A stretch of 64,000 bases of DNA from a virus (Duplodnaviria; Caudoviricetes). The position numbers and the translations under genes are program-made. The stretch lies in the IMG/VR virus record IMGVR_UViG_3300023218_000062. One strand, written 5' to 3'. The notes below the pieces were generated by a model. It ran no database searches. It saw nothing but the letters and a program-made list of their open reading frames with translations, and had not been told where the DNA came from. Below, piece after piece: positions 2,748 to 53,158 of the stretch. Numbering within the stretch: position 1 is the stretch's first letter; each line of letters opens with the position of its first letter.

Positions 2748-3920
2748 CTACACCTCTATGTCCTCAACTACATCTAAAGTTGTTTCATATTCTTCCAAAT
2801 ACTTTTTAGCATTTTTCATGATAAAATTCTTGTAATCTATTTCCTTACCAGAATATAATCCCATAGCAATATTGAATTGATCCCGCTCCAGTTTTTGTTG
2901 TCCTTTTATAGCATAATCTTTACGCGCTAAGCTCTTGTGAGCTTCGTAAAAGCTATTAGATGCTTTCAAGAGCCGATTCATCATATGGGATACAAAAATC
3001 TCCATGTTTTCAATCTCACGGAGAGCTTGTTCGTCATCTTCGAACATTTGACGTAAATCATCAGACGCTTCTTCTAATACAACTGCCATCAATCTCTTAG
3101 GACTGGTTACAGAATCTTTGGCATGATGCAACGAAACATATTCATTAGTTTTTATCTTAACCATGGTTCCATCTTTTAAACGAATGACATATCCTTCAAT
3201 ACCTTTCATATCGGGAATTGAATTTACAAAATTTTCTACGGTAGAAAAATTTAACACTTCATCTAAATGATTTTTTACTAAAAAGGGGCTCAACCCATAT
3301 TCTTTCATCTCATCAAAAGTCATAAAAGAAAAATCTTCTCTGGATCTAACACCTAGAACAACTAAAGAACAATTTGTATATGGTAAAACTATACGATTTT
3401 TTGCAGAACAATATTCCATGTTCACAGTATAATTTTTGTTTTCCAGGATATTAATATGTTCATGTAAAGTTTTTCCAGTATCGGGATTTTTCATTTCACT
3501 GGCCAAACGATATGCTTCTTCGGCCATCATTGAAGTCAATGAGGTTTTAGATTTATATCTAACATTCATTCCATAATCTAGATAAGAAGATATCAAAGAA
3601 CCATCTTCCTTAGTAGCAATGTAATCAACGTTATCATTTGAAAAATCTAGATCCATGGTAAATGGGTTTTCGCCAAGATTGAAAAATTTGGGAAAAGGAA
3701 GTGAAACCAATTCGGGTTCCTTACCCAAAAGGAACATATGCCCTCGACATTCTAACGCATTTTCTCGTAAAAAATCGGTATATGAACCCAAACGATAAGA
3801 GAACACACGATAGGTTTTCCCGTCATGTGGGCATAATTGATCAACGTGGTAGAACGGAGATTCCTCGTCAGAAGACAATTCCATCAAGTTGTTATATAAG
3901 TTTTGTGTGATATTATTCAT
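2748..3920 (-). CDS. rnlA: T4 Rnl1-family RNA ligase
   Basis: Nucleotidyltransferase motif I ATKEDGSLI (KxDG), N-terminal LECRGHMF and SLPFPKFFNLGENP, motif IV EGYVI and motif V VKIKTNEYVSLH. Sigma70 promoter TTGATT-N17-TATAGT upstream on the minus strand. Confidence 0.92.
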   Translation of the reverse strand: MNNITQNLYNNLMELSSDEESPFYHVDQLCPHDGKTYRVFSYRLGSYTDFLRENALECRGHMFLLGKEPELVSLPFPKFFNLGENPFTMDLDFSNDNVDYIATKEDGSLISSYLDYGMNVRYKSKTSLTSMMAEEAYRLASEMKNPDTGKTLHEHINILENKNYTVNMEYCSAKNRIVLPYTNCSLVVLGVRSREDFSFMTFDEMKEYGLSPFLVKNHLDEVLNFSTVENFVNSIPDMKGIEGYVIRLKDGTMVKIKTNEYVSLHHAKDSVTSPKRLMAVVLEEASDDLRQMFEDDEQALREIENMEIFVSHMMNRLLKASNSFYEAHKSLARKDYAIKGQQKLERDQFNIAMGLYSGKEIDYKNFIMKNAKKYLEEYETTLDVVEDIEV

Positions 3921-7998: not shown

Positions 7999-8139
7999 TT
8001 AAAAACTTTTACATTTCATTAACCTTTATGCTACACTATGTGTCCCGGCTAACCAAGGAAACATACCCTAAGTGGTATGAAATCCCGTAGGGCATAGAGT
8101 TGTTTCAAAAAAATTCGGAAGCATATTTTTAATAATTCA

Positions 8140-8168
8140 TTGACATAACGAATTTCGTAGATTATACT
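8140..8168 (+). promoter_or_regulatory. Sigma70-type promoter
   Basis: TTGACA-N17-TATACT, followed by AGGAG RBS and ATG at 8201. Confidence 0.85.
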
Positions 8169-8200
8169 ATTTATCATAAACCGTAAAATAGGAGCTAAGC

Positions 8201-8947
8201 ATGAAATTTGTCGTATATGAATCTGAGTCTGGTTGTAAGTTTCGTTGCACTGAAGCACAACAGGAGACATTGAGAAAGCTGGAAACCATTGTTAAAGGTG
8301 GTATTGGCACCGTTCATGGTTACACAATGAAATCGGGCCGTGTAAAGCCTGAAACGGCTGATATTCAGTTTCTTACTGCATTCTCTACTGAACGTCTTTA
8401 TAGGCGTCGGATTGCGGCATTGGAATCTATCAGCTATGACGATATTGCTGATAATCTTCCAGACAATCCGAAGCTGACGAAACTGACAGAAGATGAGCGC
8501 AGGGAATTGTTCAACACTCGCCGTCAAAAGGAAATTGCCAGTTATCAGAAGTCTCTTGATGGTGACCGTAGTGACGCACATCGACAAGCACATGATCGTT
8601 GCTACTGCAACATCGGTCAAGGTGTGAAGGTTCATTATCGCACCGAAAAGGATGATGATGGCATTCGCCAGCCGATTATGATTAACGGTTTGCCTGTTGT
8701 AGAATCTATCATGCTGACGATTCTCGAAATCAGGCGTAAGGTAATCGAACCGGGCGAGTACAAGACGGTCAATTCTGGCGCTCCAGTGCTTATTTCTAAT
8801 GCGATCAAGTCTACTATGAATCTTCGGTCAGTTGGTCTCAAAACCCTTTCACTGAAAGAAGATAACTTCGACAGGCTTGTACTGGACAAGACGGAGTTCC
8901 TGCCTGAACAGGTTGAAAGTATCCCGGCAGACTTGTTCATTCGGTAA
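8201..8947 (+). CDS. Hypothetical protein (early region)
   Basis: 248 aa with own promoter and RBS, visibly GC-richer codon usage; no motif recognised. Confidence 0.85.
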   Translation: MKFVVYESESGCKFRCTEAQQETLRKLETIVKGGIGTVHGYTMKSGRVKPETADIQFLTAFSTERLYRRRIAALESISYDDIADNLPDNPKLTKLTEDERRELFNTRRQKEIASYQKSLDGDRSDAHRQAHDRCYCNIGQGVKVHYRTEKDDDGIRQPIMINGLPVVESIMLTILEIRRKVIEPGEYKTVNSGAPVLISNAIKSTMNLRSVGLKTLSLKEDNFDRLVLDKTEFLPEQVESIPADLFIR

Positions 8948-8993
8948 AAGTCTGCCGGGATACTCTAAGAGTCAGTCGTTAATCGGCTGACTC
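8918..8993 (+). terminator. Double hairpin at the 3' end of 8201..8947
   Basis: Perfect 17-bp inverted repeat AGTATCCCGGCAGACTT (8918-8934) / AAGTCTGCCGGGATACT (8948-8964), then GAGTCAGTCG-TTAAT-CGGCTGACTC. Confidence 0.6.
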
Positions 8994-9595
8994 ATTTCTG
9001 AACACTTAGACTGACGGCACTCCAAAAACTTTGTATAGGACGTTGTAAATCTTATCAATGCATTGGTAAATAGCTTTCTTTAATTATAGAACATGAGGAT
9101 TAACAAATGAATGAGCGAAATACATACTCTTTGATGCATGGGCTGGAAAAACTATGATACTAGAACTCTTAAACGTACTCTCGGCAATTGCAGTAATCTT
9201 TGTTACAGGGATGATTGCAGGTGCTAAACTCATACTCAAAGTAAGGGAGAAATAAATAAAATTGAATCAATGTCAATACGGTATTTTGGTTGAAAGTGAT
9301 TATGGTGGAGTAGGTATGGTTGTTGGAATCACGAATAATGCAAGAGGCGTAGAGCTTTCTGTATGCAAGAAAAAATTCATACAATTCCAATAGTTCAATG
9401 GTCTTGTGGAGAAACTTCCAGTATTCATCGCGAAAAAATAAAGAAACTCTAATATTCTCTCGAAAAAAGGGATAAGATAATTCTTATCCCTACCGTAGAG
9501 CCTTTATCATGTATTTTAAATAATGTCAAGAGTTTTTTTAATTGGTTTGTTGAGTATCCTATGGTAATATGTCAAGAGTTTTAATAAAGAAATCA

Positions 9596-9766
9596 ATGAT
9601 GAAAAAGATTTTTGTACTAGTGTGTGTTCTACTTATTGCCGGATGCGTTGAAGATTCCGGTCCAGAAGCATACGATGCCGTTGTGTGTAGCTGTATAAAA
9701 CAAGGCAAAGTCATGTACGTACATAAAACGTTTAGTTTTGTTACCGTTGAATGTGTGGACCCATAA
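9596..9766 (+). CDS. Small predicted lipoprotein
   Basis: MMKKIFVLVCVLLIAG-C: basic N-terminus, hydrophobic core and lipobox LIAGC. Confidence 0.55.
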   Translation: MMKKIFVLVCVLLIAGCVEDSGPEAYDAVVCSCIKQGKVMYVHKTFSFVTVECVDP

Positions 9767-9808
9767 AAAACAGTTGACAATTGTTTTCTCATATGCGATA
9801 CTACCACT

Positions 9809-11191
9809 ATGAATGATACTATCCTAATAGGAAAAGGCGACGAATCCCAAGTACATTTGCTTGGCAAGTATGCTAATCGTCATGGTCTAGTTGCTGGCGC
9901 TACAGGTACTGGCAAGACGGTAACCCTGATGATGTTGGCCGAAGGTTTTTCCCGTATGGGAGTACCGGTATTCATGGCTGACGTTAAGGGTGATATGGCA
10001 GGTTTGGCAATGCAAGGTGAGGATAATCAAAAGATTCGTGGCCGTGCTGAAAAAATTGGTCTTGATGCTTTTGACTTTTCAAGTAATCCGGTATCCTTTT
10101 GGGATTTATGGGATAAGATTGGTAATCCTATCCGAACAAGCGTAGAAAGCATCGGTGCGACATTGATGGCAAGAATGCTTGATGTTAGTGATGCTCAAGA
10201 GGGTGTACTTGATGTTGTATATCATTATGCAAGAGAACGTGGTATGCCCTTTGAGACTCTCACAGATTTTCGTAAACTGTTGAGTCATATGGCGCAGAAT
10301 CGTGAGTCTATCAGTACCGAATATGGACTAATAAGCGCCAATAGTATCGGAGTCATCCAGCGTCGATTACTCACACTGGAAAATGATGGCATTGATAATT
10401 TCTTTGGTACTCCTGCATTAGAGTTGTCTGATTTCATGCGTGAACAAAATGGCAAGGGTGTTATCAATATTCTTTCTGCTGAAAGTCTTATACTTCGGCC
10501 TAGAATGTATTCCACCTTTTTGCTTTGGTTATTGTCAGAGTTATTCGATAAGATGCCAGAAATTGGTGATGTTGACAAGCCTAGGTTGGTATTCTTTTTT
10601 GATGAAGCTCACTTGTTGTTCGATGATTGCTCGGGTGCATTGCTTCGCAGAGTTGAACAGGTAGTAAGATTGATCCGTTCCAAGGGTGTAGGCGTATACT
10701 TTTGTTCGCAGAACCCTGACGATATACCTGAGACTGTCTTAGGACAGCTTGGCAACCGTGTTCAACATGCACTAAGGGCATTCACTCCAAGAGATCAAAA
10801 AGCCGTTAGAGCGGCTGCTGAGACGTTTGTGGATAATCCTAATATCAATGTTAGTGATATTATTACTCGTTTGGGTGTAGGTGAAGCATTAACATCGATG
10901 TTGGATGACAAGGGTATTCCGCAACCAGTCCAGCGTACAATTATTTCACCGCCACAATGCCGTATCGGTTCTATCACTGATGACGAAAGGATGACTATCG
11001 TTAATAATGATTCATTACAGGAAAAATATGCAAAGTCTGAACCTGAACCGGAGCCAATAATTGAACGTGATACAAATGATTATGTGGAACCCGAACCCGA
11101 ACCCGACCCCGAACCCGAACCTGAACCTGAAAGTTTCGGTACAAGGTTCAAGAGAGAATTTTTGAATATACTCTTGTTTCGCAGAACATAA
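9809..11191 (+). CDS. yjgR: DUF853/YjgR HerA-FtsK-family ATPase
   Basis: ANRHGLVAGATGTGKTVTL (Walker A), VPVFMADVKGD, FFFDEAHLLF (Walker B), LIRSKGVGVYF, QLGNRVQHALRAFTPRDQKAV; C-terminal (PE)n tail. Promoter TTGACA-N17-GATACT at 9774-9802. Confidence 0.92.
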   Translation: MNDTILIGKGDESQVHLLGKYANRHGLVAGATGTGKTVTLMMLAEGFSRMGVPVFMADVKGDMAGLAMQGEDNQKIRGRAEKIGLDAFDFSSNPVSFWDLWDKIGNPIRTSVESIGATLMARMLDVSDAQEGVLDVVYHYARERGMPFETLTDFRKLLSHMAQNRESISTEYGLISANSIGVIQRRLLTLENDGIDNFFGTPALELSDFMREQNGKGVINILSAESLILRPRMYSTFLLWLLSELFDKMPEIGDVDKPRLVFFFDEAHLLFDDCSGALLRRVEQVVRLIRSKGVGVYFCSQNPDDIPETVLGQLGNRVQHALRAFTPRDQKAVRAAAETFVDNPNINVSDIITRLGVGEALTSMLDDKGIPQPVQRTIISPPQCRIGSITDDERMTIVNNDSLQEKYAKSEPEPEPIIERDTNDYVEPEPEPDPEPEPEPESFGTRFKREFLNILLFRRT

Positions 11192-11564
11192 TAGCGCACA
11201 ATATCATTTATGGACAAACATACAGAACAATTATTGGATGAACTCGATTCTGCTGTATTTTCTAGTGATACGTTCCTTGATAAGGAATCATTAGAAAGGT
11301 TGCAGTATTATGTAAATCGCTGGCAGCGGGAAAGTCAAAACATTCAAACTTTCTTAGAACAATGGGATGAGGAGGAATAACACAATGATAGATACACTTG
11401 AATTCTTGGCACTGACAATTGAACAGGAAGCAATTAATGCAACACCGTCTATCGCTAATGAAGATTATGATTCTCGTATTGAGAGAATAGAAAGACGTAA
11501 GGAACAAATGATTAGAAATATTGTCTAAAAAAGTCTTGACAATCCTTGATAAATAGTTTAGACT

Positions 11565-11810
11565 GTAGTTGTGATGATAAATCACGTTTGCAAATACCGA
11601 TGACAAAAACGGTGGACAAGAGTACATCGTGGGGCAACCCTACAGTATCGGCCATGCTGATCCGGTGATGGTGACAAAGATATTGTGAGTCGGACGCCAA
11701 GCGACCGGCCCAAAAAAATTCTCGTTAATAGACTACAAGACTGGTCCTCGCATGACCGTCCCGATGAGTAAGAGCAAAGGTCGTTAATTGATTTGCCACC
11801 AGTCTTGTTT
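11565..11810 (+). ncRNA. Candidate structured ncRNA A
   Basis: No plausible ORF; promoter TTGACA(11536)-N17-TAGACT. Stems: GTGAT/ATCAC, CGGTG/CATCG, GGG-GCAA-CCC, GTCG/CGAC, and a 10-bp CAAGACTGGT/ACCAGTCTTG followed by a T-run. Confidence 0.6.
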
Positions 11811-12076
11811 TTTAAACATATAAAGAAGAAAAAATGGGCGGTATATCAGCACCTATAAAAAGCTGGGGATGGACAGCCCCTTAAATGATATATTAACCCT
11901 TTTTTCTTTTCACCTATAGGAGAAAAGGTCCGGTTATTCGGGACTTTTATTTTTCCTACTCTAGAGCCTTTACCATAGATTGAACCTATTGTCAAGAAAA
12001 TTAATTATAAAATTTTTCTTGATTTCTAAATAGAAGTTCGGTAGAATGCACTAAATCGAATAAGAATGGAAATCAA

Positions 12077-12244
12077 ATGAACACGTACAAGAAGATTTCT
12101 CTTTATGGTCCGGGTGGTCGTAACTGTACTTGCTGTGGTCCTGCCCCTAAGCATCGGAAGAAGCATGATCGTATGATTAAGCGTCGTGAGCAGCAGAACG
12201 CTAAGAAGAAGATTGAACGAGAAGTGATGGATGTAAATCTCTAA
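12077..12244 (+). CDS. 55-aa basic, Cys-containing peptide (below the ORF-track cutoff)
   Basis: MNTYKKISLYGPGGRNCTCCGPAPKHRKKHDRMIKRREQQNAKKKIEREVMDVNL; promoter TTGATT-N17-TAGAAT upstream. Confidence 0.7.
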   Translation: MNTYKKISLYGPGGRNCTCCGPAPKHRKKHDRMIKRREQQNAKKKIEREVMDVNL

Positions 12245-12289
12245 AAACCGCTTGACATATATGTTTTTTCAGATATAATACTAAGTATA

Positions 12290-12530
12290 AATAAAGTAGT
12301 TCCTGAGCGTCAGAGGGAAAACGGTGTATGAGATCATCGTGGGGAAAACCCTATAGGCCAAATTTGGAAGACTTAAAATAAAACTCATGAAGAACAAATT
12401 AGACGCAGAATTAGAAACTCTGCAACGATACAGGGTCCGGAGGTAATGCCGGTTAGAATGATAGGATAGCGCCTATCACGTTGCCCCGCTAGGTAATTGT
12501 CAATCCCTAGCCTAGTTTGTTCAATTTTAA
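12290..12530 (+). ncRNA. Candidate structured ncRNA B (shares a core with A), directly upstream of tRNA-Lys
   Basis: Promoter TTGACA(12252)...TATAAT(12274). Core AAAACGGTG..CATCGTGGGGAAAACCCTATAGGCCA (12318-12360). Three-way junction GCAACG/CGTTGC enclosing CCGG/CCGG and GATAGG/CCTATC; further stem GCTAGG/CCTAGC. Confidence 0.6.
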
Positions 12531-12535
12531 TCTCT

Positions 12536-12612
12536 GGGTCTGTGGCGCAATTGGTTAGCGCAGTGGACTTTTAATCCATTGGTTGTGAGTTCGAGTCTCA
12601 CCAGACCCACCA
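12536..12612 (+). tRNA. tRNA-Lys(UUU)
   Basis: GGGTCTG acceptor / CAGACCC, anticodon arm GTGGA-CT-TTT-AA-TCCAT, T-arm GTGAG-TTCGAGT-CTCAC, encoded CCA. Confidence 0.96.
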
Positions 12613-12759
12613 ATTTTAATACATAGAAAGTTCATTGGAGGAAAAAATGGACAACCGAGAAGGGGGTGATGAACTTCATGTATATAATGTAAAAGCGGTG
12701 GATGCAATTAAACCGAATTAACGCTTGACAAATGGAATGAGATATGTATAATAGGTTGC

Positions 12760-13420
12760 AAGTGGTCGTTTCAGAGTGAAGGTTCGACACCCTAACCGAA
12801 TAGTTAATCGGCACCTGTTTAACGATTACTTCATGTTTCCAGCCCGATCTAAATATCGGATATGAAACATAAAGAGGCCCAAAGCTGAAAAGGCAACACA
12901 CCTAGAGTGTGCGGTAGAGCCTAAGCTACCTCCGAGGCGGGAATTTTTTAATATTTGGTTGGTTCATCAAGAACACCTTATAATTCGTTACACCGACCAA
13001 AGTTTTTGACTGTAAGTAGTGATGAAATCTTATAGTCTTATCTTCAACAAGCCGTAATTCAATCGGGCTTTGTACTTGAGATTGAACGAGATATTGCTGG
13101 CTGTAGGGTAATATCATCACGTATCTACAGGGCGAGGCTGCCGTCTTAGCAGTCAACATATAGTCTCAGTCTCGCAGAGACTTTATAAAACACAGTGAGC
13201 GCGAGATTAACTGGAAAACGATAACTGGCAGGTTGGGAGAGCGACCCAATGCCCTTGGCGACAAGGCAGCGTAGTGTGACCGGTTTTTGTAGATAACGTG
13301 CAAACCTTGTTCTAGACGAGTTAGGCTAGGAGACGAGAAACTCCGAAAAATCAAATTCAGGGCACATAGCAAGGGCGCTTGTAGCAGTCTGTGAAGCGCG
13401 GCCCGCGTGGAGACTGCTAT
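12760..13420 (+). ncRNA. Candidate large ornate ncRNA (~660 nt; GOLLD/ROOL-like size and context, family not determined)
   Basis: Own promoter TTGACA(12725)...TATAAT(12747), no credible sense ORF, more than 12 stems including GNRA-capped CCTTG-GCGA-CAAGG, a possible pseudoknot, and a closing TAGCAGTCT/AGACTGCTA; lies next to a tRNA. Confidence 0.72.
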
Positions 13421-13461
13421 TTCAATTTCAATGATACTGTATTTTAAGAGGGTGGTGGAAT

Positions 13462-14056
13462 ATGAAATCAATTGAAGAATGGAGCGCAACACGTTGGATT
13501 TTTACCGCAATGGCATCTATCATCTGCCGGATTGATCGGTGAAAAGGTGGTGGAGAGAGAAGTATTTGAAAATAGTTTTCAATATAATGAAGCACGAAAG
13601 ACCGCCATCGCTACATATGAAGCACAGTTGACTGAAATTAATTCCCAACTTCGAAACAACAATCTTTCAGAACGTGAAAGAAGCAATCTACGCTACTCAT
13701 AGTGTATGGCGCAGTAATCATGGAATGGTTGAAGGTGATTGTCCGTCTATTGGATATGGCATTCTGTATGATACTTCTTTGACCAATCCACAGCGAGCTA
13801 CGGCTCAAGCGGCTGACAAACGATACCTTCTGAATCTCTAGCCACAATTGAACAAGCTGAACCTAATGGTATCTTCGCCAGTAAGAATACGGCAGCTACG
13901 TGGGTATTCTGTGTGGGTAGCGCGGGATCGTTAAATCCAGTATACGTTGAAACCAAGGTTACTGCATATCCGTATTATCCAGTTAATGTTGATTATGAGA
14001 CCAACAGGGTTACTCAAGCTGGTGAATCGAATGTTAATGTGACGGTTAACCGCTAG
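13462..14056 (+). pseudogene. Disrupted/fused remnants of probably two adjacent phage genes
   Basis: RBS + ATG at 13462, then protein-like segments in alternating frames: LSSAGLIGEKVVEREVFENSFQY..., THSVWRSNHGMVEGDCPSIGYG..., and SLATIEQAEPNGIFASKNTAATWVFC...VNR*. Confidence 0.55.
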
Positions 14057-14086
14057 ATCAATTGAACGGTAGTCAATATAATAATG

Positions 14087-14116
14087 AAACAGGGGGCTAG
14101 CCCCCTGTTTCTTTTT
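14087..14116 (+). terminator. Intrinsic terminator
   Basis: AAACAGGGGG-CTAG-CCCCCTGTTT followed by CTTTTT. Confidence 0.8.
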
Positions 14117-14170
14117 CGACATAATGTAAGTTTTTCTTGACATTTACGAAAATGATGGTATATTGAAACC

Positions 14171-14974
14171 ATGATGACACTAATCAAAAACCGAGAAATG
14201 TACGATACTTTCGTTAAATTCCTTCCAGAGTTGGAGCGTGACGAAGTATATTTTCTTTCATTGTCAGCACGTAATAAGTATCTGACCGAAGATGAACGTG
14301 AAGCCTATTCTCTCAGCAGAACTGAAATGTTTTCCCGCCATATTGCACATGATAAGGAAGGCATCGAATACGCTATCAAGAAGATGGAAGCCGAACTAGA
14401 AGTAAAGACTACTCGTAGTGGTCATCGTATTCCAGAGAAAGCATTGGTAGTATACTTTAATATTCATCCTTCTTCAATGACCAGAGCGTATACTTCATTC
14501 AAAGATCAAATGAACGCACATTACGATGAAATCGTTAAATCATTGATGAAGGGCTCGAATCCACATTACCATCCATTCTTAGGAATGCGTACTAAGTTGA
14601 TGAATCATATACAAAAATCCTCTTCAAGAAAGGAATGGGTGGATATAGATATTGATATTGATGCACTTGATGAAGAAACCGCATTGCGATATTCTGCATC
14701 GATAGCTAATCCTTTATTCATGCATTCTATCAATAATGTAAGAATCAAGACTCAGGGTGGTGTTCATCTTTTAGTGAAACGGAGCGATCTTAACACGAAA
14801 CCGATGAATATTCCATTGCATAAACTGATAGGAAACATTCATAAAGAACTCAAAGGGCTTGGCGGGGAATGTAAATTTAACAACAACGCCATGGTACCAT
14901 TACCGGGAACTAATCAAGCTGGTAAATTGGTAGTTATTCATGATACAACTCTTGACAATTTAGTTTTAATTTGA
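14171..14974 (+). CDS. Hypothetical protein, possibly AEP/PrimPol-like
   Basis: Own promoter (TTGACA 14137). WVDIDID (DxD) followed by KTQGGVHLLV (GxH) matches the spacing of AEP motifs I/II. Confidence 0.4.
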   Translation: MMTLIKNREMYDTFVKFLPELERDEVYFLSLSARNKYLTEDEREAYSLSRTEMFSRHIAHDKEGIEYAIKKMEAELEVKTTRSGHRIPEKALVVYFNIHPSSMTRAYTSFKDQMNAHYDEIVKSLMKGSNPHYHPFLGMRTKLMNHIQKSSSRKEWVDIDIDIDALDEETALRYSASIANPLFMHSINNVRIKTQGGVHLLVKRSDLNTKPMNIPLHKLIGNIHKELKGLGGECKFNNNAMVPLPGTNQAGKLVVIHDTTLDNLVLI

Positions 14975-15011
14975 TATGATTTGGTTTTACAATATACAAA
15001 CAGGAAAGTAA

Positions 15012-15493
15012 ATGAGTGCTGGAACACACTATTCACTAGCATTTGATTTAAATAAAATGCAAGCGCTATGTAAAGAAGCAGCGTATAAATTAAATACATA
15101 TCAAAAAGAAAATAAGTGTGATATTGTTTTCATTTATTCTGGAATGTCCGGGATAGCTACAGCAACAGCATTAGCTCATTATTTATATTGCGATTATGAT
15201 ATTGTTGCGCATATGATCTATGTACGTAAAGAAAATGATAACAATCATAACGACTCAATAGTTGAATGGAGCGAGAATAGCCAAAGATATAATAAAGCTG
15301 CTATTTTTTTATTGATGACCTTATTGAAAGTGGAAATACATTTAATCGTACACGAAATTATGCAAGCAGGGCACAATTTATAAAAGCGAAAAAACTTACT
15401 AATAAACATATTGGAACAATTCTTATTGAATTTGATTTAATGTTTAAAATTCCTCAAAAACATGTAATACTTGATAATTATAACCGAGGATAG
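15012..15493 (+). CDS. Type I phosphoribosyltransferase-fold protein (frameshift at T7 run 15304-15310)
   Basis: Shifting frame in the T-run gives IDDLIESGNTF, a PRPP-binding-loop motif. Upstream are SGMSGIATA and YVRKE; the frame ends at TAG 15491-15493. Confidence 0.6.
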
Positions 15494-15497
15494 ATAG

Positions 15498-15916
15498 ATG
15501 TTTGACGAAAGAACTTTTTATGGTAATATTGTTACAGTGCATGTTAGAATTAACAATATCGTGAATGTTAAACATAACATATATGATTATGAGCACGAAA
15601 TCTCGTTAAATGATGCTATCAAAGAGGGTAAAATTTGCAGTGAGGATAATACAAAACAATATTATTTTTCCTCACCTATAATAGAATGGCTGAAAACTTT
15701 TAAATAACGGAAAAGCTTATGAAAGAATATGGATATACACTGTATACAAATACAGGTGAAAAAATTAGAGGAACAGTGTCATGCAAAAACGAACAAATTG
15801 CAAATGGTACTGTAAAGAGTATCAAGAATGCTCGCCAAGATGTTGAATTTGCTACCATTGATAGTCTTGATGTACCTTGTGATTATGATTGGGATGAAGA
15901 TTGTAAGGCATGGTAG
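15498..15916 (+). CDS. Two small hypothetical ORFs (15498-15707, 15719-15916)
   Basis: Co-oriented and closely spaced, with an RBS-like GAGG upstream. Confidence 0.5.
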
Positions 15917-15994
15917 TCAAGAATATTTTAATAACTACTTGACAAAACTCAAATTTAAAGGTATAGTTAAAAAATCACATAATACAACATAGGA

Positions 15995-16708
15995 GTGATG
16001 AAAATGCAAACACAAACACTAGAAACACTAAAAAATCATGGTTTAACTATCAACGAAAATGAACTGGATTCCGAGGATTTGGTTTCTCAGTTGGGTAGTA
16101 TGGATGTAGGTGATCTGTGGACTATTGTAGAAGAACTTAGCGGTGATGAAGCCATCAGAATTGATGATAATGAACAAGTGCAAAGTTTGGCACTAAGTTA
16201 TGCTCTAGTTGATGCCTTTGAAAATGATCTTGATCAAATCAGTCAGGCTGAAATTGATGCTGCGATACAGAAGGCTACAGAATCTACTAATAAGCTAACA
16301 GATAATATGCCCGAAAAAGAAGATGAAGCTGAAACTGAACCCAACGAAACCCAAGTTGGGGTCAAGACTAATCGAAAGACTCTTGTCAAAAGTTTGGTAG
16401 AAGAAAACCCTGATGCATTAGCGGATGAAATTGTGGACATGGCAGCGGAAGCTGATCCTGATATGAATACAACAACCGCCAAACAGTATTACTATAACGC
16501 CCGAAAGGAACTAGGATTGAAAGCTGTTGGAAAATGTGGTCGTAAGCCGTCCGATACTATGGACCGCATTAAGGCCATACTGGATGGCAACCTTGATGTT
16601 CCCAAATCTGAAATGGTTGAAAAAATTGTATCAGAAATTGGCGTCAAGGAAGGTACAGCATCTACGTATTATTCCAAGGCTAAAAAGCAGTTGAAACAAA
16701 ACGCATAA
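15995..16708 (+). CDS. Acidic N-terminus + tandem HTH-like protein (paralog of 23119..23853)
   Basis: Promoter TTGACA(15939)-N17-TATAGT and AGGAG RBS. Repeated motif [AT]A..YY.[NK]A[RK]K.L shared with 23119..23853. Confidence 0.8.
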   Translation: MMKMQTQTLETLKNHGLTINENELDSEDLVSQLGSMDVGDLWTIVEELSGDEAIRIDDNEQVQSLALSYALVDAFENDLDQISQAEIDAAIQKATESTNKLTDNMPEKEDEAETEPNETQVGVKTNRKTLVKSLVEENPDALADEIVDMAAEADPDMNTTTAKQYYYNARKELGLKAVGKCGRKPSDTMDRIKAILDGNLDVPKSEMVEKIVSEIGVKEGTASTYYSKAKKQLKQNA

Positions 16709-16726
16709 AACCAAAAGGATAATTAA

Positions 16727-16921
16727 ATGAGAAAGAATTTTCCGGAACGTAAAAAAGCTCGTCGCCGTCAGGCTCTTGAACAAGTAAATGCACGCATCAA
16801 GCGTGGCGGAAAGGCTGCTAACCCTGATGAACGTGAAAGTAAGGGCATCACGGGGAACAAGGAAGCGCAACGTCTTGAACAGGCTAAGTATGAAAAAGCT
16901 CTACTAGAAAAAAGAGTTTAA
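16727..16921 (+). CDS. Small basic hypothetical protein
   Basis: AAAGGA RBS; K/R-rich 64 aa. Confidence 0.65.
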   Translation: MRKNFPERKKARRRQALEQVNARIKRGGKAANPDERESKGITGNKEAQRLEQAKYEKALLEKRV

Positions 16922-18783
16922 TGGAATCATACTTAATAGCATTATGGAAGGAACTTGACCCATTGCGCAATATTTGACTTTCAAGCTCTGGTTGGGTATA
17001 ATTATCCTAATGGGAGCAATTTCTGCCTACCGTTGAAGATAGCGTTCTTGTAGGTAGTGCATGGAATATTATATGTATTGCGGGGAATATGTCTTATGAA
17101 GAACAGAATAACACATTGAAATTAATTAAGGGGTTTTCGATCAAGGATGGTGCGGATTATATCCTCCAACATATCATTCCAATGATCGAAAAGAAAATGA
17201 AAAGATAATGACAACATGATATAGATTATCATGTTGATAAGCCTAAAACTGATTATATACATGTTTTTGATGAGTATCGTGGTACGGGTCTTGCTGAACA
17301 ATTGCATTATCGTGCTGCAAAATGGATGCAATGTTTTATTGATGATGATTTGGTAAGAACTAAAAAACTCAACGGGCACACTTTTAATTATCTTGATGTG
17401 TCCAAGAACTTACGGCTTGACAGCGTAGCTTAATGACATTAAACTGCTGGAACTCTTTTAAGGAATCTCTCATGAACGAAATGCGAAAGATTGAAGTGTC
17501 CAAGGGAAAATACATTCTTTACAATGATACTTTTTTTGTTAAATCATGCGGCAAACATATTGTATGGACTTCTGCAAGACAGAATGCATATATGTTCGAT
17601 TCAAACATTCAAGTAGAAGATTGCCTTGAAAAAATAAACAAATTTCTTCGTAATAGCACTTGACAGACATGAATTTTTCTGTATAATGGTTCACATGGTC
17701 ATCGGGACCAGACATTAACCCTTCAATCAGGAGAACATAAAGTGAGTAATCGTACTCGGGAATACACTCTGGAAGTCTATCGCAACAAGCGCTATCGTAC
17801 CGTTCATGCTTCTCGCAAGATTTCACAATGTCTCAAGCGAGTGTGGAGCATGTATGACCGTTGCCGTATTCGCCTGAATGGTGAACAGGTGGTTCATCAG
17901 TTTCCTGCCTGTCAGTAAACATCAACTCAAAATTGTGGGGAAGGAACTTCCTTCCCCACACTAATCAATTAAAGGTTGTAAGTATATGAATCTCCACGAA
18001 AAAATCACACATATAAATAAATTGGCAGAAGATTTTGGGCTGACAGTCAAATTCGATTCGGAATTCAAGAAACTGTTCATCTATAATCCTACTCCGGGTC
18101 GCCAGCGTATCAAGGCTATCACAGATTTGTCGTTGGAATCTGTTAAAGAATCTCTCTTTTGGGTTGCATCATCATCCAAGGCATGATATACTAATGTTTT
18201 CATTCCATAAAGGTTCTAACACAATGCAGACAAGTTTTGATGTTTACCAAAACGGAAAACTGATTCACGTTCTACAATTTAACTACGATGTGAGTCCACA
18301 AAAAATCAAACAGGATATGGGAGAACGCGATGGATTTCAAGGACCATTGTTAGTCGTAAAAAAGCCAATGCTTAAAGTGAAATAACACTTGTCAAGCTAC
18401 TTTGAAACTTCTCAGTATGGAGAATGTTCTTAATTTCAAAACATAGGAATATACCGCATGATTACTAAGCAACAGAATGAAATGATTAGAGAGTTACGTG
18501 ACAGTGGATGCGCGGTCATTATTTTTCCGCTAGAAGACCTGAAGGGTGTTGACCCTGAATTAATTGAAGAAGCGCTAATAGTTGAAGGTAACATTATTAT
18601 TGAGAAATTGTCTCAAGAATGATAGGTAACTACTTGTCTAAAAAGGAAAAATGGACTCTCGCAATTCTTTATATGATAGTAATTATAGAGTTTACAGTTG
18701 TCATATACATGGCATCCAATCAATAATAATTTAAATAGTGGTTGCATTATTTGAATTTTTCTATATAATAGATTTCACATTCA

Positions 18784-19308
18784 TTGATAGGAGAGTATTT
18801 GATGCATACCATTTATGAAGCACGGCAAGAAGTTGAAAAGTGTCTTGAACGTGCAAAGGAACTCTTTGGTTTCAACGCGGATGTTGACATTTCTTTTGAC
18901 AAACGTGGTCGTATTGCTGGAATGGCACATAACTCGCCTAATGGATATGCTTTGAAATTCAATCATCAATTGCTCGAAAACGAACATTGGGGAGAATTGA
19001 TTGATGAAACGATTCCCCATGAGGTAGCGCATATTGTATGCTACTTTAATCCTACTCTTGGTAAGAATCATGACCAAGGCTGGCGTAGAGTATGCAGAAT
19101 GTTGGGTGGTCGTGGTGATCGTACTCATAATATGCCGCTCAAACGTGCTCGGGTGACTCGTAAGGCACTCTATGAGATCAATGGCAAGACTGTTCATGTT
19201 GGTCTTACTGTGCATCGTAGAATCCAACAGGGAAGGGCTTACAATATGCGTAGTGCTGGCAGAATACATCCTACTGACTTCACTGGACAGATTATAAAAA
19301 TGAAATAA
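18784..19308 (+). CDS. sprT: SprT-like zinc metalloprotease
   Basis: RGRIAGMA, TIPHEVAHIV (HExxH), NHDQGWRRVCRMLG. Shared early leader CACATTCATTGATAGGAG upstream. Confidence 0.88.
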   Translation: MIGEYLMHTIYEARQEVEKCLERAKELFGFNADVDISFDKRGRIAGMAHNSPNGYALKFNHQLLENEHWGELIDETIPHEVAHIVCYFNPTLGKNHDQGWRRVCRMLGGRGDRTHNMPLKRARVTRKALYEINGKTVHVGLTVHRRIQQGRAYNMRSAGRIHPTDFTGQIIKMK

Positions 19309-19311
19309 GAC

Positions 19312-19356
19312 TTGACAAAACCCTCGATAGTTGATACTATTATAACTATCGAGGGT
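19312..19356 (+). promoter_or_regulatory. Sigma70 promoter overlapped by a 13-bp perfect inverted repeat (operator/terminator-like)
   Basis: TTGACA(19312)-N17-TACTAT(19335); ACCCTCGATAGTT (19320-19332) / AACTATCGAGGGT (19344-19356). Confidence 0.7.
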
Positions 19357-19524
19357 GTTTTAAGAGTGACTTTAACACTGGCCTTTCATTTTAGCTTTCG
19401 CTCACATTTTAGATTGTTGCCGGTCACACTTTCCTCGGGGGATATTGGATGAATTGATGAATGGTGCGGGTCAATAACCCAATCCTGAAATCACGAAGAT
19501 CAAGTTAGAGTCACTCTTAAAACA
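19356..19524 (+). ncRNA. Candidate ~170-nt RNA closed by a 21-bp stem
   Basis: TGTTTTAAGAGTGACTTTAAC (19356-19376) pairs with GTTAGAGTCACTCTTAAAACA (19504-19524) with one G-U pair; starts just after a promoter and contains no ORF. Confidence 0.5.
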
Positions 19525-20061
19525 TTTTTAAACATCGGAGCTATGTAATGTCTAAACGACTCGAAGCATTAAGCGAAAAGGTTCGAAAAGGTATTCCCAT
19601 CAACTTTGCAGAAGGCATCGAAGTTATTGAATATCAGGAGCGGTTGCAGGCAGACCGAGAGCGAAAACGTAACAAGACTGTAATAGGCAGACTAATAAAC
19701 TGGATTCAACATAGATACGGGATATAAAAATGAGAACTCTAGAACAAATCGAACAGGAATATCGGAGAGTTAGTGATATTCTTTCATGGGAACCTGTTAC
19801 GGAAGAAGGTTTGTTAGAACTTCCCTTTCCAGACGTCGTATGAATAACAGATTTGTGCGAGGTCGCCTTACTCGGGATCGTTCCGGTACTGTTAGTGTCA
19901 ACATCGATCATACCATGTTGGCATGTAATTTAAATGATGCAATCAGAGCACTACACACCGAAGCAGGTGAAGTGTATTTGAACAATGTTTGACAAATCTG
20001 ACAAAATGAGGTTGAAGATGAATTTGAATGGGATGATTTTATTGAAAGTATTCGTATTAGT

Positions 20062-52366: not shown

Positions 52367-53158
52367 TTATTTATACTATTTATCATCCGGGCCCAATTGC
52401 GCAGGCGGTAATCTTCATACTTTGGCTCAAGCCGATGTATCACTACACTATACATATAAACTTCTGGATTGTCAATCCACTTTTGGCCTTCTTTACAGCT
52501 TGAATTCCATTCATGAGCAAATCTCCATATCTCAAGAGATTTCTTTTTAAAATCATCGGGCATTTTACTATCAATTTTTTGTGGAATAGATTCATTAAAT
52601 ATCCCAGTGTTAATGGCTTCTTTCTTGCCAATAGTTTTTAATTTTTTGGTATTTATTGCCACACATTCAAAAGCATATCGAGCATAAGCCTTTTTCATTT
52701 TTGAGGCTTCAATCCATTTTGGATCTCTAGCTTTATAAAAATCTGTGTAATATTGTATTGTCTTTGTGTTATCATTTTGAACTATTCTATATTTTTCAGG
52801 AACCCAATAGCTTACATCTTTTTCCAGCGAGGGTTTCTTTTTCTTTCCTACAGGTTCTAATATAATTCTAGGTGTGTTCCCAAATCTATATCGGATAAAT
52901 TTAAAGAATCTATATGGGACTTCTACCGTAAGTTTATTATTTGAATCCATTAATATGCTTGTATTCTACTTTTACTATTCTCTGTGGAGGATACCATACA
53001 GCACTGCTAGGTTCTTGTTTTTCAAAAACCCCTGTATTTTTTATTTCATTTAATCTAGTTTCTAAAGTATATCTACCTTGAATAATTTGTTCTTCAATTA
53101 TTGGCATCTTTTTTCCATTAATATAAATCTTGTATTCAATATATTCTCTATTTTCCAT
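52357..53158 (-). CDS. Two hypothetical ORFs (52357-52950, 52937-53158)
   Basis: Overlapping stop/start arrangement between tRNA-Ser and tRNA-Thr; the first has an ASCH-like 'C..W..NP.V' ending. Confidence 0.6.

Follow-up and report, generated by a model that had tools for sequence, protein, structure and literature searches.

A modular family of structured RNAs, apparently new to Rfam, next to the tRNA-Lys gene of large salt-lake phages

Introduction

In a stretch of 64 kb of DNA from a large uncultured phage, which we call the window, there is an interval, 11530-14170, that has nearly no credible open reading frames and a G+C content of about 0.40-0.42, compared with 0.29-0.36 across most of the window. 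What is encoded there, if not protein? A sequence-only reading of part of this interval had proposed two paralogous structured RNAs, copy A and copy B, which share a core of about 45 nt, each following a sigma70 promoter, and had put them forward as a candidate new class of phage non-coding RNA. The window also encodes a T4 Rnl1-type RNA ligase (2748-3920), a HerA-like ATPase, members of several PHROG families and eight tRNAs; its DNA recurs on contigs of up to 270 kb, and the runs that contain it are metagenomes only. Here we ask whether the two copies belong to a real RNA family, how large the conserved unit is, how the unit is combined with its neighbours, and what such an RNA might do beside a tRNA gene. 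The features of the locus are collected in Table 1.

Table 1. Features of the RNA locus, in coordinates of the window.
Feature	Coordinates	Strand	Details
Copy A promoter, sigma-70-type	11536-11564	+	TTGACA-17-TAGACT
GTAGTT, 5' hairpin and hypervariable linker	11565-11608	+	GTAGTT 11565-11570; hairpin 11571-11575/11581-11585; linker 11586-11608
H1 and H2, core of the A-domain	11609-11640	+	alignment fold; H1 ACGGTG/CATCGT, 11609-11614/11625-11630, 10-nt loop; H2 GGG/CCC, 11631-11633/11638-11640, loop GCAA
H3 enclosing H4	11643-11685	+	H3 11643-11649/11679-11685; H4 11651-11655/11668-11672
H5	11689-11709	+	GUCGG/CCGGC plus inner CGC/GCG
A-rich single-stranded tail	11710-11728	+	alignment A4
Long stem and U run, likely terminator of copy A	11736-11813	+	stem 11736-11745/11798-11807, predicted fold
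55-aa very basic CxCC protein (phrog_25404)	12077-12244	+	context; in every RNA lineage between the RNA and tRNA-Lys
Copy B promoter, consensus sigma-70-type	12252-12279	+	TTGACA-16-TATAAT, 12/12 matches
Copy B	12296-12392	+	GTAGTT (12296-12301), 5' hairpin (12303-12306/12310-12313 within 12303-12313), H1 (12321-12326/12335-12340), H2 (12341-12343/12349-12351), 19-nt filler, tail; model R1 alignment
3' module of copy B	12392-12521	+	11-bp closing helix 12392-12402/12511-12521 around three arms (four-way junction)
tRNA-Lys(UUU)	12536-12612	+	14 nt 3' of copy B, no promoter between
RNA C	12759-13432	+	own consensus promoter 12725-12752; M module 12829-12949; 3' domain 13297-13420

Results

All the elements of the shared core were found where the sequence-only reading had placed them. 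In the 64-kb window there are two occurrences of the pattern CATCGTGGGG-N3-5-CCCTAYAG, against none in 100 shuffles, and past H2 both copies read TA(C/T)AG. The statement that the stems are conserved and the loops divergent also holds, 26 stem and junction bases of H1 and H2 being identical between the copies. The GNRA-type loop ascribed to both, however, stands for copy A only (GCAA); in copy B the H2 loop has five nucleotides (GAAAA) and is therefore no strict GNRA tetraloop. Moreover, the similarity between A and B extends to a 3' tail of the form UUAAAA.AA..CUC.U (A 11710-11728, B 12372-12392), which the earlier reading had not reported. MAFFT alone misaligns the two copies, and the z-scores of single-sequence folds are unremarkable (-1.0 and -1.6). 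A covariance model built from copy A and its homologs with B left out (model R1) recovers copy B at 28 bits, with E ~1e-5 over 200 kb, which puts the proposed paralogy on a statistical footing; the one other match of the model in the window, at E 1.4, is not significant.

The proposed check against Rfam gave no match for A or B at the gathering score or at E<=10, in agreement with the view that they fall into no known family. With Rfam 15 at these thresholds, the window, L011, L013 and L015 (loci introduced below) returned tRNAs and noise only, and the full-length L013 and L015 RNAs found no match either. The tRNA models (RF00005, ARAGORN) returned nothing on A or B and only the genuine tRNA-Lys of Table 1.

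Homologs were collected by a core-pattern scan of JGI metagenomes and by anchoring on relatives of the 55-aa CxCC protein, which were used because this protein is encoded directly downstream of the RNA. The JGI scan gave two true homologs, L011 and L013, near-identical to each other, and a chance match within a coding region (L012). The protein anchors led to L015 (an ENA assembly), to the L033-L040 and L043/L044 group (Logan contigs), which stands under four run-accession series and so probably stems from several studies, and to L041, a sibling strain; the JGI sample of L041 also contains L030, an identical copy of the window region. In all, the A-domain, as we call the conserved unit of copy A, is present in five further metagenomic phage lineages (L011/L013, L015, the L033 group, L043/L044 and L041), and it adjoins a tRNA-Lys gene in large salt-lake phages. 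Homologs with covarying stems, which the sequence-only reading had proposed to look for in IMG/VR, do exist, but none of them came from the IMG/VR pattern scans: scans there for the core, the apical loop and the 3' domain of RNA C gave nothing or chance matches (L001 and L028, in coding DNA). The proteins neighbouring the RNA have no close relatives in IMG/VR, and spurious reading frames that overlap the RNA are absent from the protein collection. Pattern scans of GTDB genomes yielded nothing or one chance match (L029). Among cultured phages, blastn of 11400-14200 matched only the tRNA and a downstream gene, and megablast of 8000-20000 had no match. The absence from IMG/VR, GTDB and cultured-phage searches suggests that the family is rare.

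To obtain the structure we aligned window A, L033, L013 and L015 and then folded the alignment. The predicted fold has 33 pairs, of which 98.5% of cells are paired and 9 show compensatory changes on both sides (8 loci, 6 distinct sequences); since there are about three deep lineages and six sequences, and since the structure was drawn from the same sequences, these statistics are indicative and not of R-scape grade. When the partners were slid by 1-3 columns as a control, only 25-52% of cells paired, with 0-1 two-sided pairs. The changes are spread over the helices. Four of the seven H3 pairs and two H4 pairs change on both sides, with every H3 and H4 cell paired; H5 has one compensatory pair and 93.8% of its cells paired; the outer H1 pair goes from A-U to G-C in L041 and L015, and an H2 pair from G-C to C-G in L015. 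Natural variation in two runs, X2 and X3, lends independent support: the H1 double change (11609 A>G with 11630 T>C) stands together on one contig, the strain being L041, and on that contig the unpaired linker at 11586-11604 is full of substitutions and indels.

As judged from these alignments, copy A (about 11609-11728) is a real folded domain of about 130 bases and five helices. The shared core of about 45 nt is real too, but it is part of this larger conserved unit. Likewise, the idea that each copy carries a 3' module of its own has to be revised for copy A, where H3-H5 are integral to the conserved domain and it is 11736-11813 that is strain-specific, a stretch which L041 shares and in whose place the L033 group has a different sequence. 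Outside the helices, the apical loop of H4 is a conserved 12-mer, GCUGAUCCGGUG (family form GCUGAUCYGGUG), that carries the self-complementary GAUC and CCGG (CUGG in L015). CUCGUU in the tail is invariant across all homologs, the next base being A, but G in the L033 group, and the tail varies between CCAAAAAAA in window A and UUAAAAC in L013/L015. The linker 5' of the domain differs in the sibling strain by 6 substitutions and 3 indels; its sequence is different in L033 and L041 and missing in L013. A closing helix between 5' AACG and 3' CGUU of the A-domain was considered and rejected, as it is unconserved in L015.

The A-domain model scores 132-158 bits on copy A and seven homologous loci. 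Copy A has all the features by which we delimit the family, namely the helices H1-H5 and their compensatory changes, the apical loop and the CUCGUU tail; in copy B these are reduced to H1, H2 and a tail variant with CUCAU. The covarying homologs and the lack of an Rfam match together point to a real structured phage RNA family, new to Rfam, and thus support the proposal of a candidate new class, expression aside.

The three best sigma-70-type promoter matches in 10500-14000 lie at 11536-11564, 12252-12279 and 12725-12752 and lead into copy A, copy B and RNA C, respectively, in accordance with the claim that both copies follow such promoters. The layout of the copy A promoter is conserved in L041, L033, L013 and L015. 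Both copies had also been said to begin with GTAGTT and a hairpin, and both elements are there as placed; the GTAGTT of copy A, however, lies immediately 3' of the -10 hexamer, hence probably at or before the transcription start, and is probably not part of the RNA. In copy B it would fall at about +10 to +15. Besides copy A, L013 and the tRNA-Thr gene of the window (52367-52475, minus strand) have GTAGT after the -10 hexamer; the tRNA-Thr gene has a consensus promoter of its own, with TTGACA at 52475, that leads directly to GTAGTG and then to a leader of about 75 nt with hairpins.

Could the A-domain be the leader of the gene that follows it? The evidence is against a cis-acting leader: terminator-like stems lie 3' of the RNA in the window, L013 and L033, and the small ORF downstream has its own promoter (12019-12047); stems and a separate ORF promoter speak against a leader in L013 and L015 likewise. 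Since the next gene has its own promoter and terminator-like stems intervene, we infer a stable trans-acting RNA. Copy A is, then, a stand-alone transcription unit consisting of a promoter, a domain of about 130 nt and a strain-specific terminator stem. Further 3', at 11833-11900, there is another hairpin, GGUAUAUCA ... UGAUAUAUU around a GGGG/CCCC stem, recognisable in the L033 group despite different flanks. A second terminator-like site follows at 11929-11952, so that the copy A transcript may reach about 11950. In the sibling strain, 11977-12076 is replaced by diverged sequence of the same length, which takes the place of the small-ORF promoter and of part of an inverted promoter-like element.

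As to expression, 19% of the sampled 31-mers of copy A occur in four salt-lake metatranscriptome runs from two studies, in which contaminating DNA is possible. These words would fit the conserved domain of a relative, which is only a hint; of the RNA runs searched for the whole stretch, none contains all of it.

How does copy A relate to the rest of the locus? The homologs L013 and L015 suggest an answer. In L013, positions 161-279 match the A-domain (window 11608-11727, 80% identity) and, 8 nt after it, 288-395 match the 3' end of RNA C (13297-13413, 75% identity). In L015 a single promoter precedes an RNA of about 650 nt that comprises a 5' hairpin, the A-domain, the M module, about 130 nt more and the 3' domain; here 733-850 is about 93% identical to the M module at 12829-12949 (by eye, alignment A3). 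The A-domain is therefore, in L013 and L015, the 5' end of one contiguous RNA of 330-650 nt. Because the A-domain and the parts of C are contiguous there, the family must be regarded as divided, in the window, among separate transcription units, A and C being set apart by the small ORF, copy B and tRNA-Lys. In the L033 group the A-domain stands alone on the contigs read, which are of 2.8-7.8 kb, with a different tail and its own terminator, and the contig that extends past tRNA-Lys continues there into coding sequence, with no C-type RNA. RNA C itself has no Rfam match; of the 27 pairs predicted for its 3' domain, 8 are compensatory. The RNA C of the sibling strain is without 12778-13048, the M module included, and carries a further deletion of 12 nt at 13367. 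These arrangements indicate that the family is built from exchangeable modules and that A belongs with RNA C. Trans pairing of the A tail with TTAACGA (12819) or TAACG (13293) in RNA C was considered and dropped; the pairing is unconserved in the sibling strain and so remains speculation.

Downstream of RNA C, at 13472-14056, we observed 67-68% DNA identity with one hypothetical gene of ~127-kb Vibrio phages (Quinn, Luma and others). In the window this stretch holds three short ORFs in different frames (13472-13702, 13674-13841 and 13913-14056) and has the appearance of a gene that is frameshifted or in decay, or else is read in an unusual way.

Copy B runs into tRNA-Lys, as had been noted, at a distance of 14 nt. 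It has 19 nt in place of the 66 model positions that make up H3-H5, and its stems are identical to those of A, not covarying, so that it adds no structural evidence. Its 3' module is 96% identical in L041, with all changes wobble-compatible, and has no Rfam match. A paralogous relation of this module to the 3' domain of C was rejected, since model R2 gave no significant match and only a GCAGA..AGAAAC hairpin is alike. The B transcript of L041 retains GTAGTTCC, a related tail and the 3' module, and a shorter unrelated stretch replaces the hairpin, H1 and H2 (from 12304 to 12371-12379), the flanks being 87-96% identical. In the L033 group copy B is absent and the small ORF leads straight into tRNA-Lys.

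Our analysis suggests that copy B is a genuine but degenerate paralog in which H1, H2 and the tail survive but H3-H5 are gone, and that its core is probably dispensable. Is it then functional at all? That the core of B is a non-functional remnant, or a recombination patch in a tRNA leader, with selection acting on copy A only, is a serious contender to which we give somewhat less than even credence. The replacement of the core in L041 between well-conserved flanks, the absence of B from the L033 group and the loss of H3-H5 are all as one would expect of a remnant. On the other hand, the 26 positions of H1 and H2 that are identical to A beside diverged loops are hard to account for without selection or another donor, and this pattern of identical stem and junction bases suggests either selection or descent from some donor that was not copy A of the same strain.

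The protein between the RNA and tRNA-Lys deserves separate consideration. The order RNA, small ORF, tRNA-Lys(UUU) is constant in all RNA-bearing lineages. An Atlas search with the small protein returned viral hypothetical proteins only. The CxCC protein and tRNA-Lys(UUU) form a conserved pair (window, L013, L014, L015, L035, L042, L044), even in L014, which is without the RNA, and remoter relatives of the protein are encoded within tRNA clusters of phages, such as that of L009, which has 16 tRNAs. The RNA was sought by blastn, nhmmer or covariance model at the small-ORF loci L002-L010, L014 and L016-L027 and found at none of them. In L032, the stretch 1-362 precedes a further homolog of the small ORF; these roughly 360 nt are rich in G+C, contain no called gene and have no relation to the A-domain, and they could encode a structured RNA of another kind in the same niche.

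The constant gene order would be explained if the RNA were the partner of the CxCC protein, the two making up a small ribonucleoprotein with tRNA-Lys as its target or partner. The very basic character of the protein and the location of its relatives in phage tRNA clusters fit such a role, but the protein occurs without the RNA in L014 and L002-L010, and RNA and protein are under separate promoters, so that we regard a partnership of this kind as rather unlikely.

Discussion

Taken together, we consider it quite probable that the A-domain unit, its relatives and the degenerate copy B form one modular family whose role would be an architectural one in trans. Our best guess, purely by analogy, is that the RNA acts in trans and has an architectural role of the GOLLD/ROOL kind. 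The A-domain would then be no cis-regulator but would serve in trans for architecture or assembly, after the fashion of GOLLD and ROOL. Its GNRA loop and its apical loop could make tertiary or intermolecular contacts, possibly with a C-type RNA. Copy B, its 130-nt four-way-junction module and tRNA-Lys would make up one precursor, and RNase P, cutting at the 5' end of the tRNA, would free a leader RNA of about 240 nt.

A bolder picture can be drawn from the same arrangement, namely that the A-domain and RNA C are a naturally fragmented large ornate RNA that is reassembled in trans, with a minimal A fragment tethered to the tRNA-Lys precursor and the whole locus serving as one module for lysine decoding. 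A and C, one molecule in the relatives, would here be made from separate promoters and would be reassembled, perhaps to form a multimeric particle of the GOLLD or ROOL sort, and the RNA, the CxCC protein and tRNA-Lys(UUU) would together protect or exploit lysine decoding during infection. We consider this picture distinctly improbable.

Proximity to a lysine tRNA also raises the question of whether the RNA is a counter-defence element tied to that tRNA, for instance a decoy or shield against anticodon nucleases that works through the A-rich tail. There is a precedent, since the PARIS nuclease is neutralised by a phage tRNA-Lys (PMC11464382). The constant neighbour of the RNA is a phage tRNA-Lys(UUU), to which copy B is fused, the tail sequence UUAAAA or AAAAAAA is complementary to the anticodon loop UUUUAA, and the window encodes a T4 Rnl1-type RNA ligase. 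Complementarity over 6 nt is, however, statistically meaningless, A-rich linkers are common in folded RNAs, and the tail is unlike between window A (CCAAAAAAA) and L013/L015 (UUAAAAC); as it stands we would call a decoy or shield highly unlikely. Hardly any weight can be given to the idea that the core cleaves itself or otherwise serves in processing, so as to trim primary transcripts and release, for instance, the tRNA-Lys precursor: its junction and loop nucleotides are highly conserved and copy B sits within a tRNA precursor, but the Rfam ribozyme models (hammerhead, twister, pistol, hatchet, HDV-like) have no match at E<=10 in 11300-13100 or L015, the core is not needed for tRNA-Lys in the sibling strain or the L033 group, which make this tRNA while lacking it, and nothing lies downstream of copy A to be released.

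Returning to the modular family with an architectural role, we note that nature offers it in several combinations: the A-domain alone, the A-domain with the 3' domain, the A-domain with the M module and the 3' domain, and a C-type RNA without A. One phage has the family split into separate transcription units and a minimal copy fused to a tRNA. These combinations amount to a ready-made series of deletions and complementations for the study of folding, assembly and function. Moreover, the constant company of tRNA-Lys(UUU) and a tiny basic protein leads to a testable hypothesis, that of an interplay with tRNA-targeting defence.

How does the family compare with known RNAs of phages? The small stable RNAs of phage T4 known as 'species 1 and 2' are encoded in a tRNA cluster, co-transcribed with the tRNAs and released by tRNA-processing enzymes. 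Compared by description, copy B, fused to tRNA-Lys, would behave alike; copy A differs in that it is not co-transcribed with a tRNA. GOLLD and ROOL are large RNAs that self-assemble into cages, multimeric nanocages made of RNA only, and to our knowledge nobody knows their role. According to the cited work, both are found in phages close to tRNA islands; in GOLLD the 3' region is conserved and the 5' region varies, and ROOL is a phage or prophage RNA of about 600 nt, ornate and without a known protein partner (10.1101/2024.12.08.627333). Like GOLLD (RF01998), the new family is phage-borne, large, multi-helical and adjacent to a tRNA, which here is tRNA-Lys in all lineages, and the C 3' domain is kept among lineages as the 5' modules vary, a resemblance that implies no membership. 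It differs in that the GOLLD covariance model is unmatched even at E<=10 in the window, L011, L013 and L015, in its length of about 330-650 nt as against more than 800 for GOLLD, and in that the RNA of the window, known here from sequence alone, is split into separate promoter-driven units. With ROOL (RF03087) it shares the niche near tRNA islands, the size class and the ornate character; the ROOL model, however, is likewise unmatched (window, L011, L013, L015), and no common motifs were detected. The new family thus resembles GOLLD and ROOL in niche and organisation and falls outside both by the tests that define their members; it would be an independent, unrelated RNA family in the genomic niche that GOLLD and ROOL occupy.
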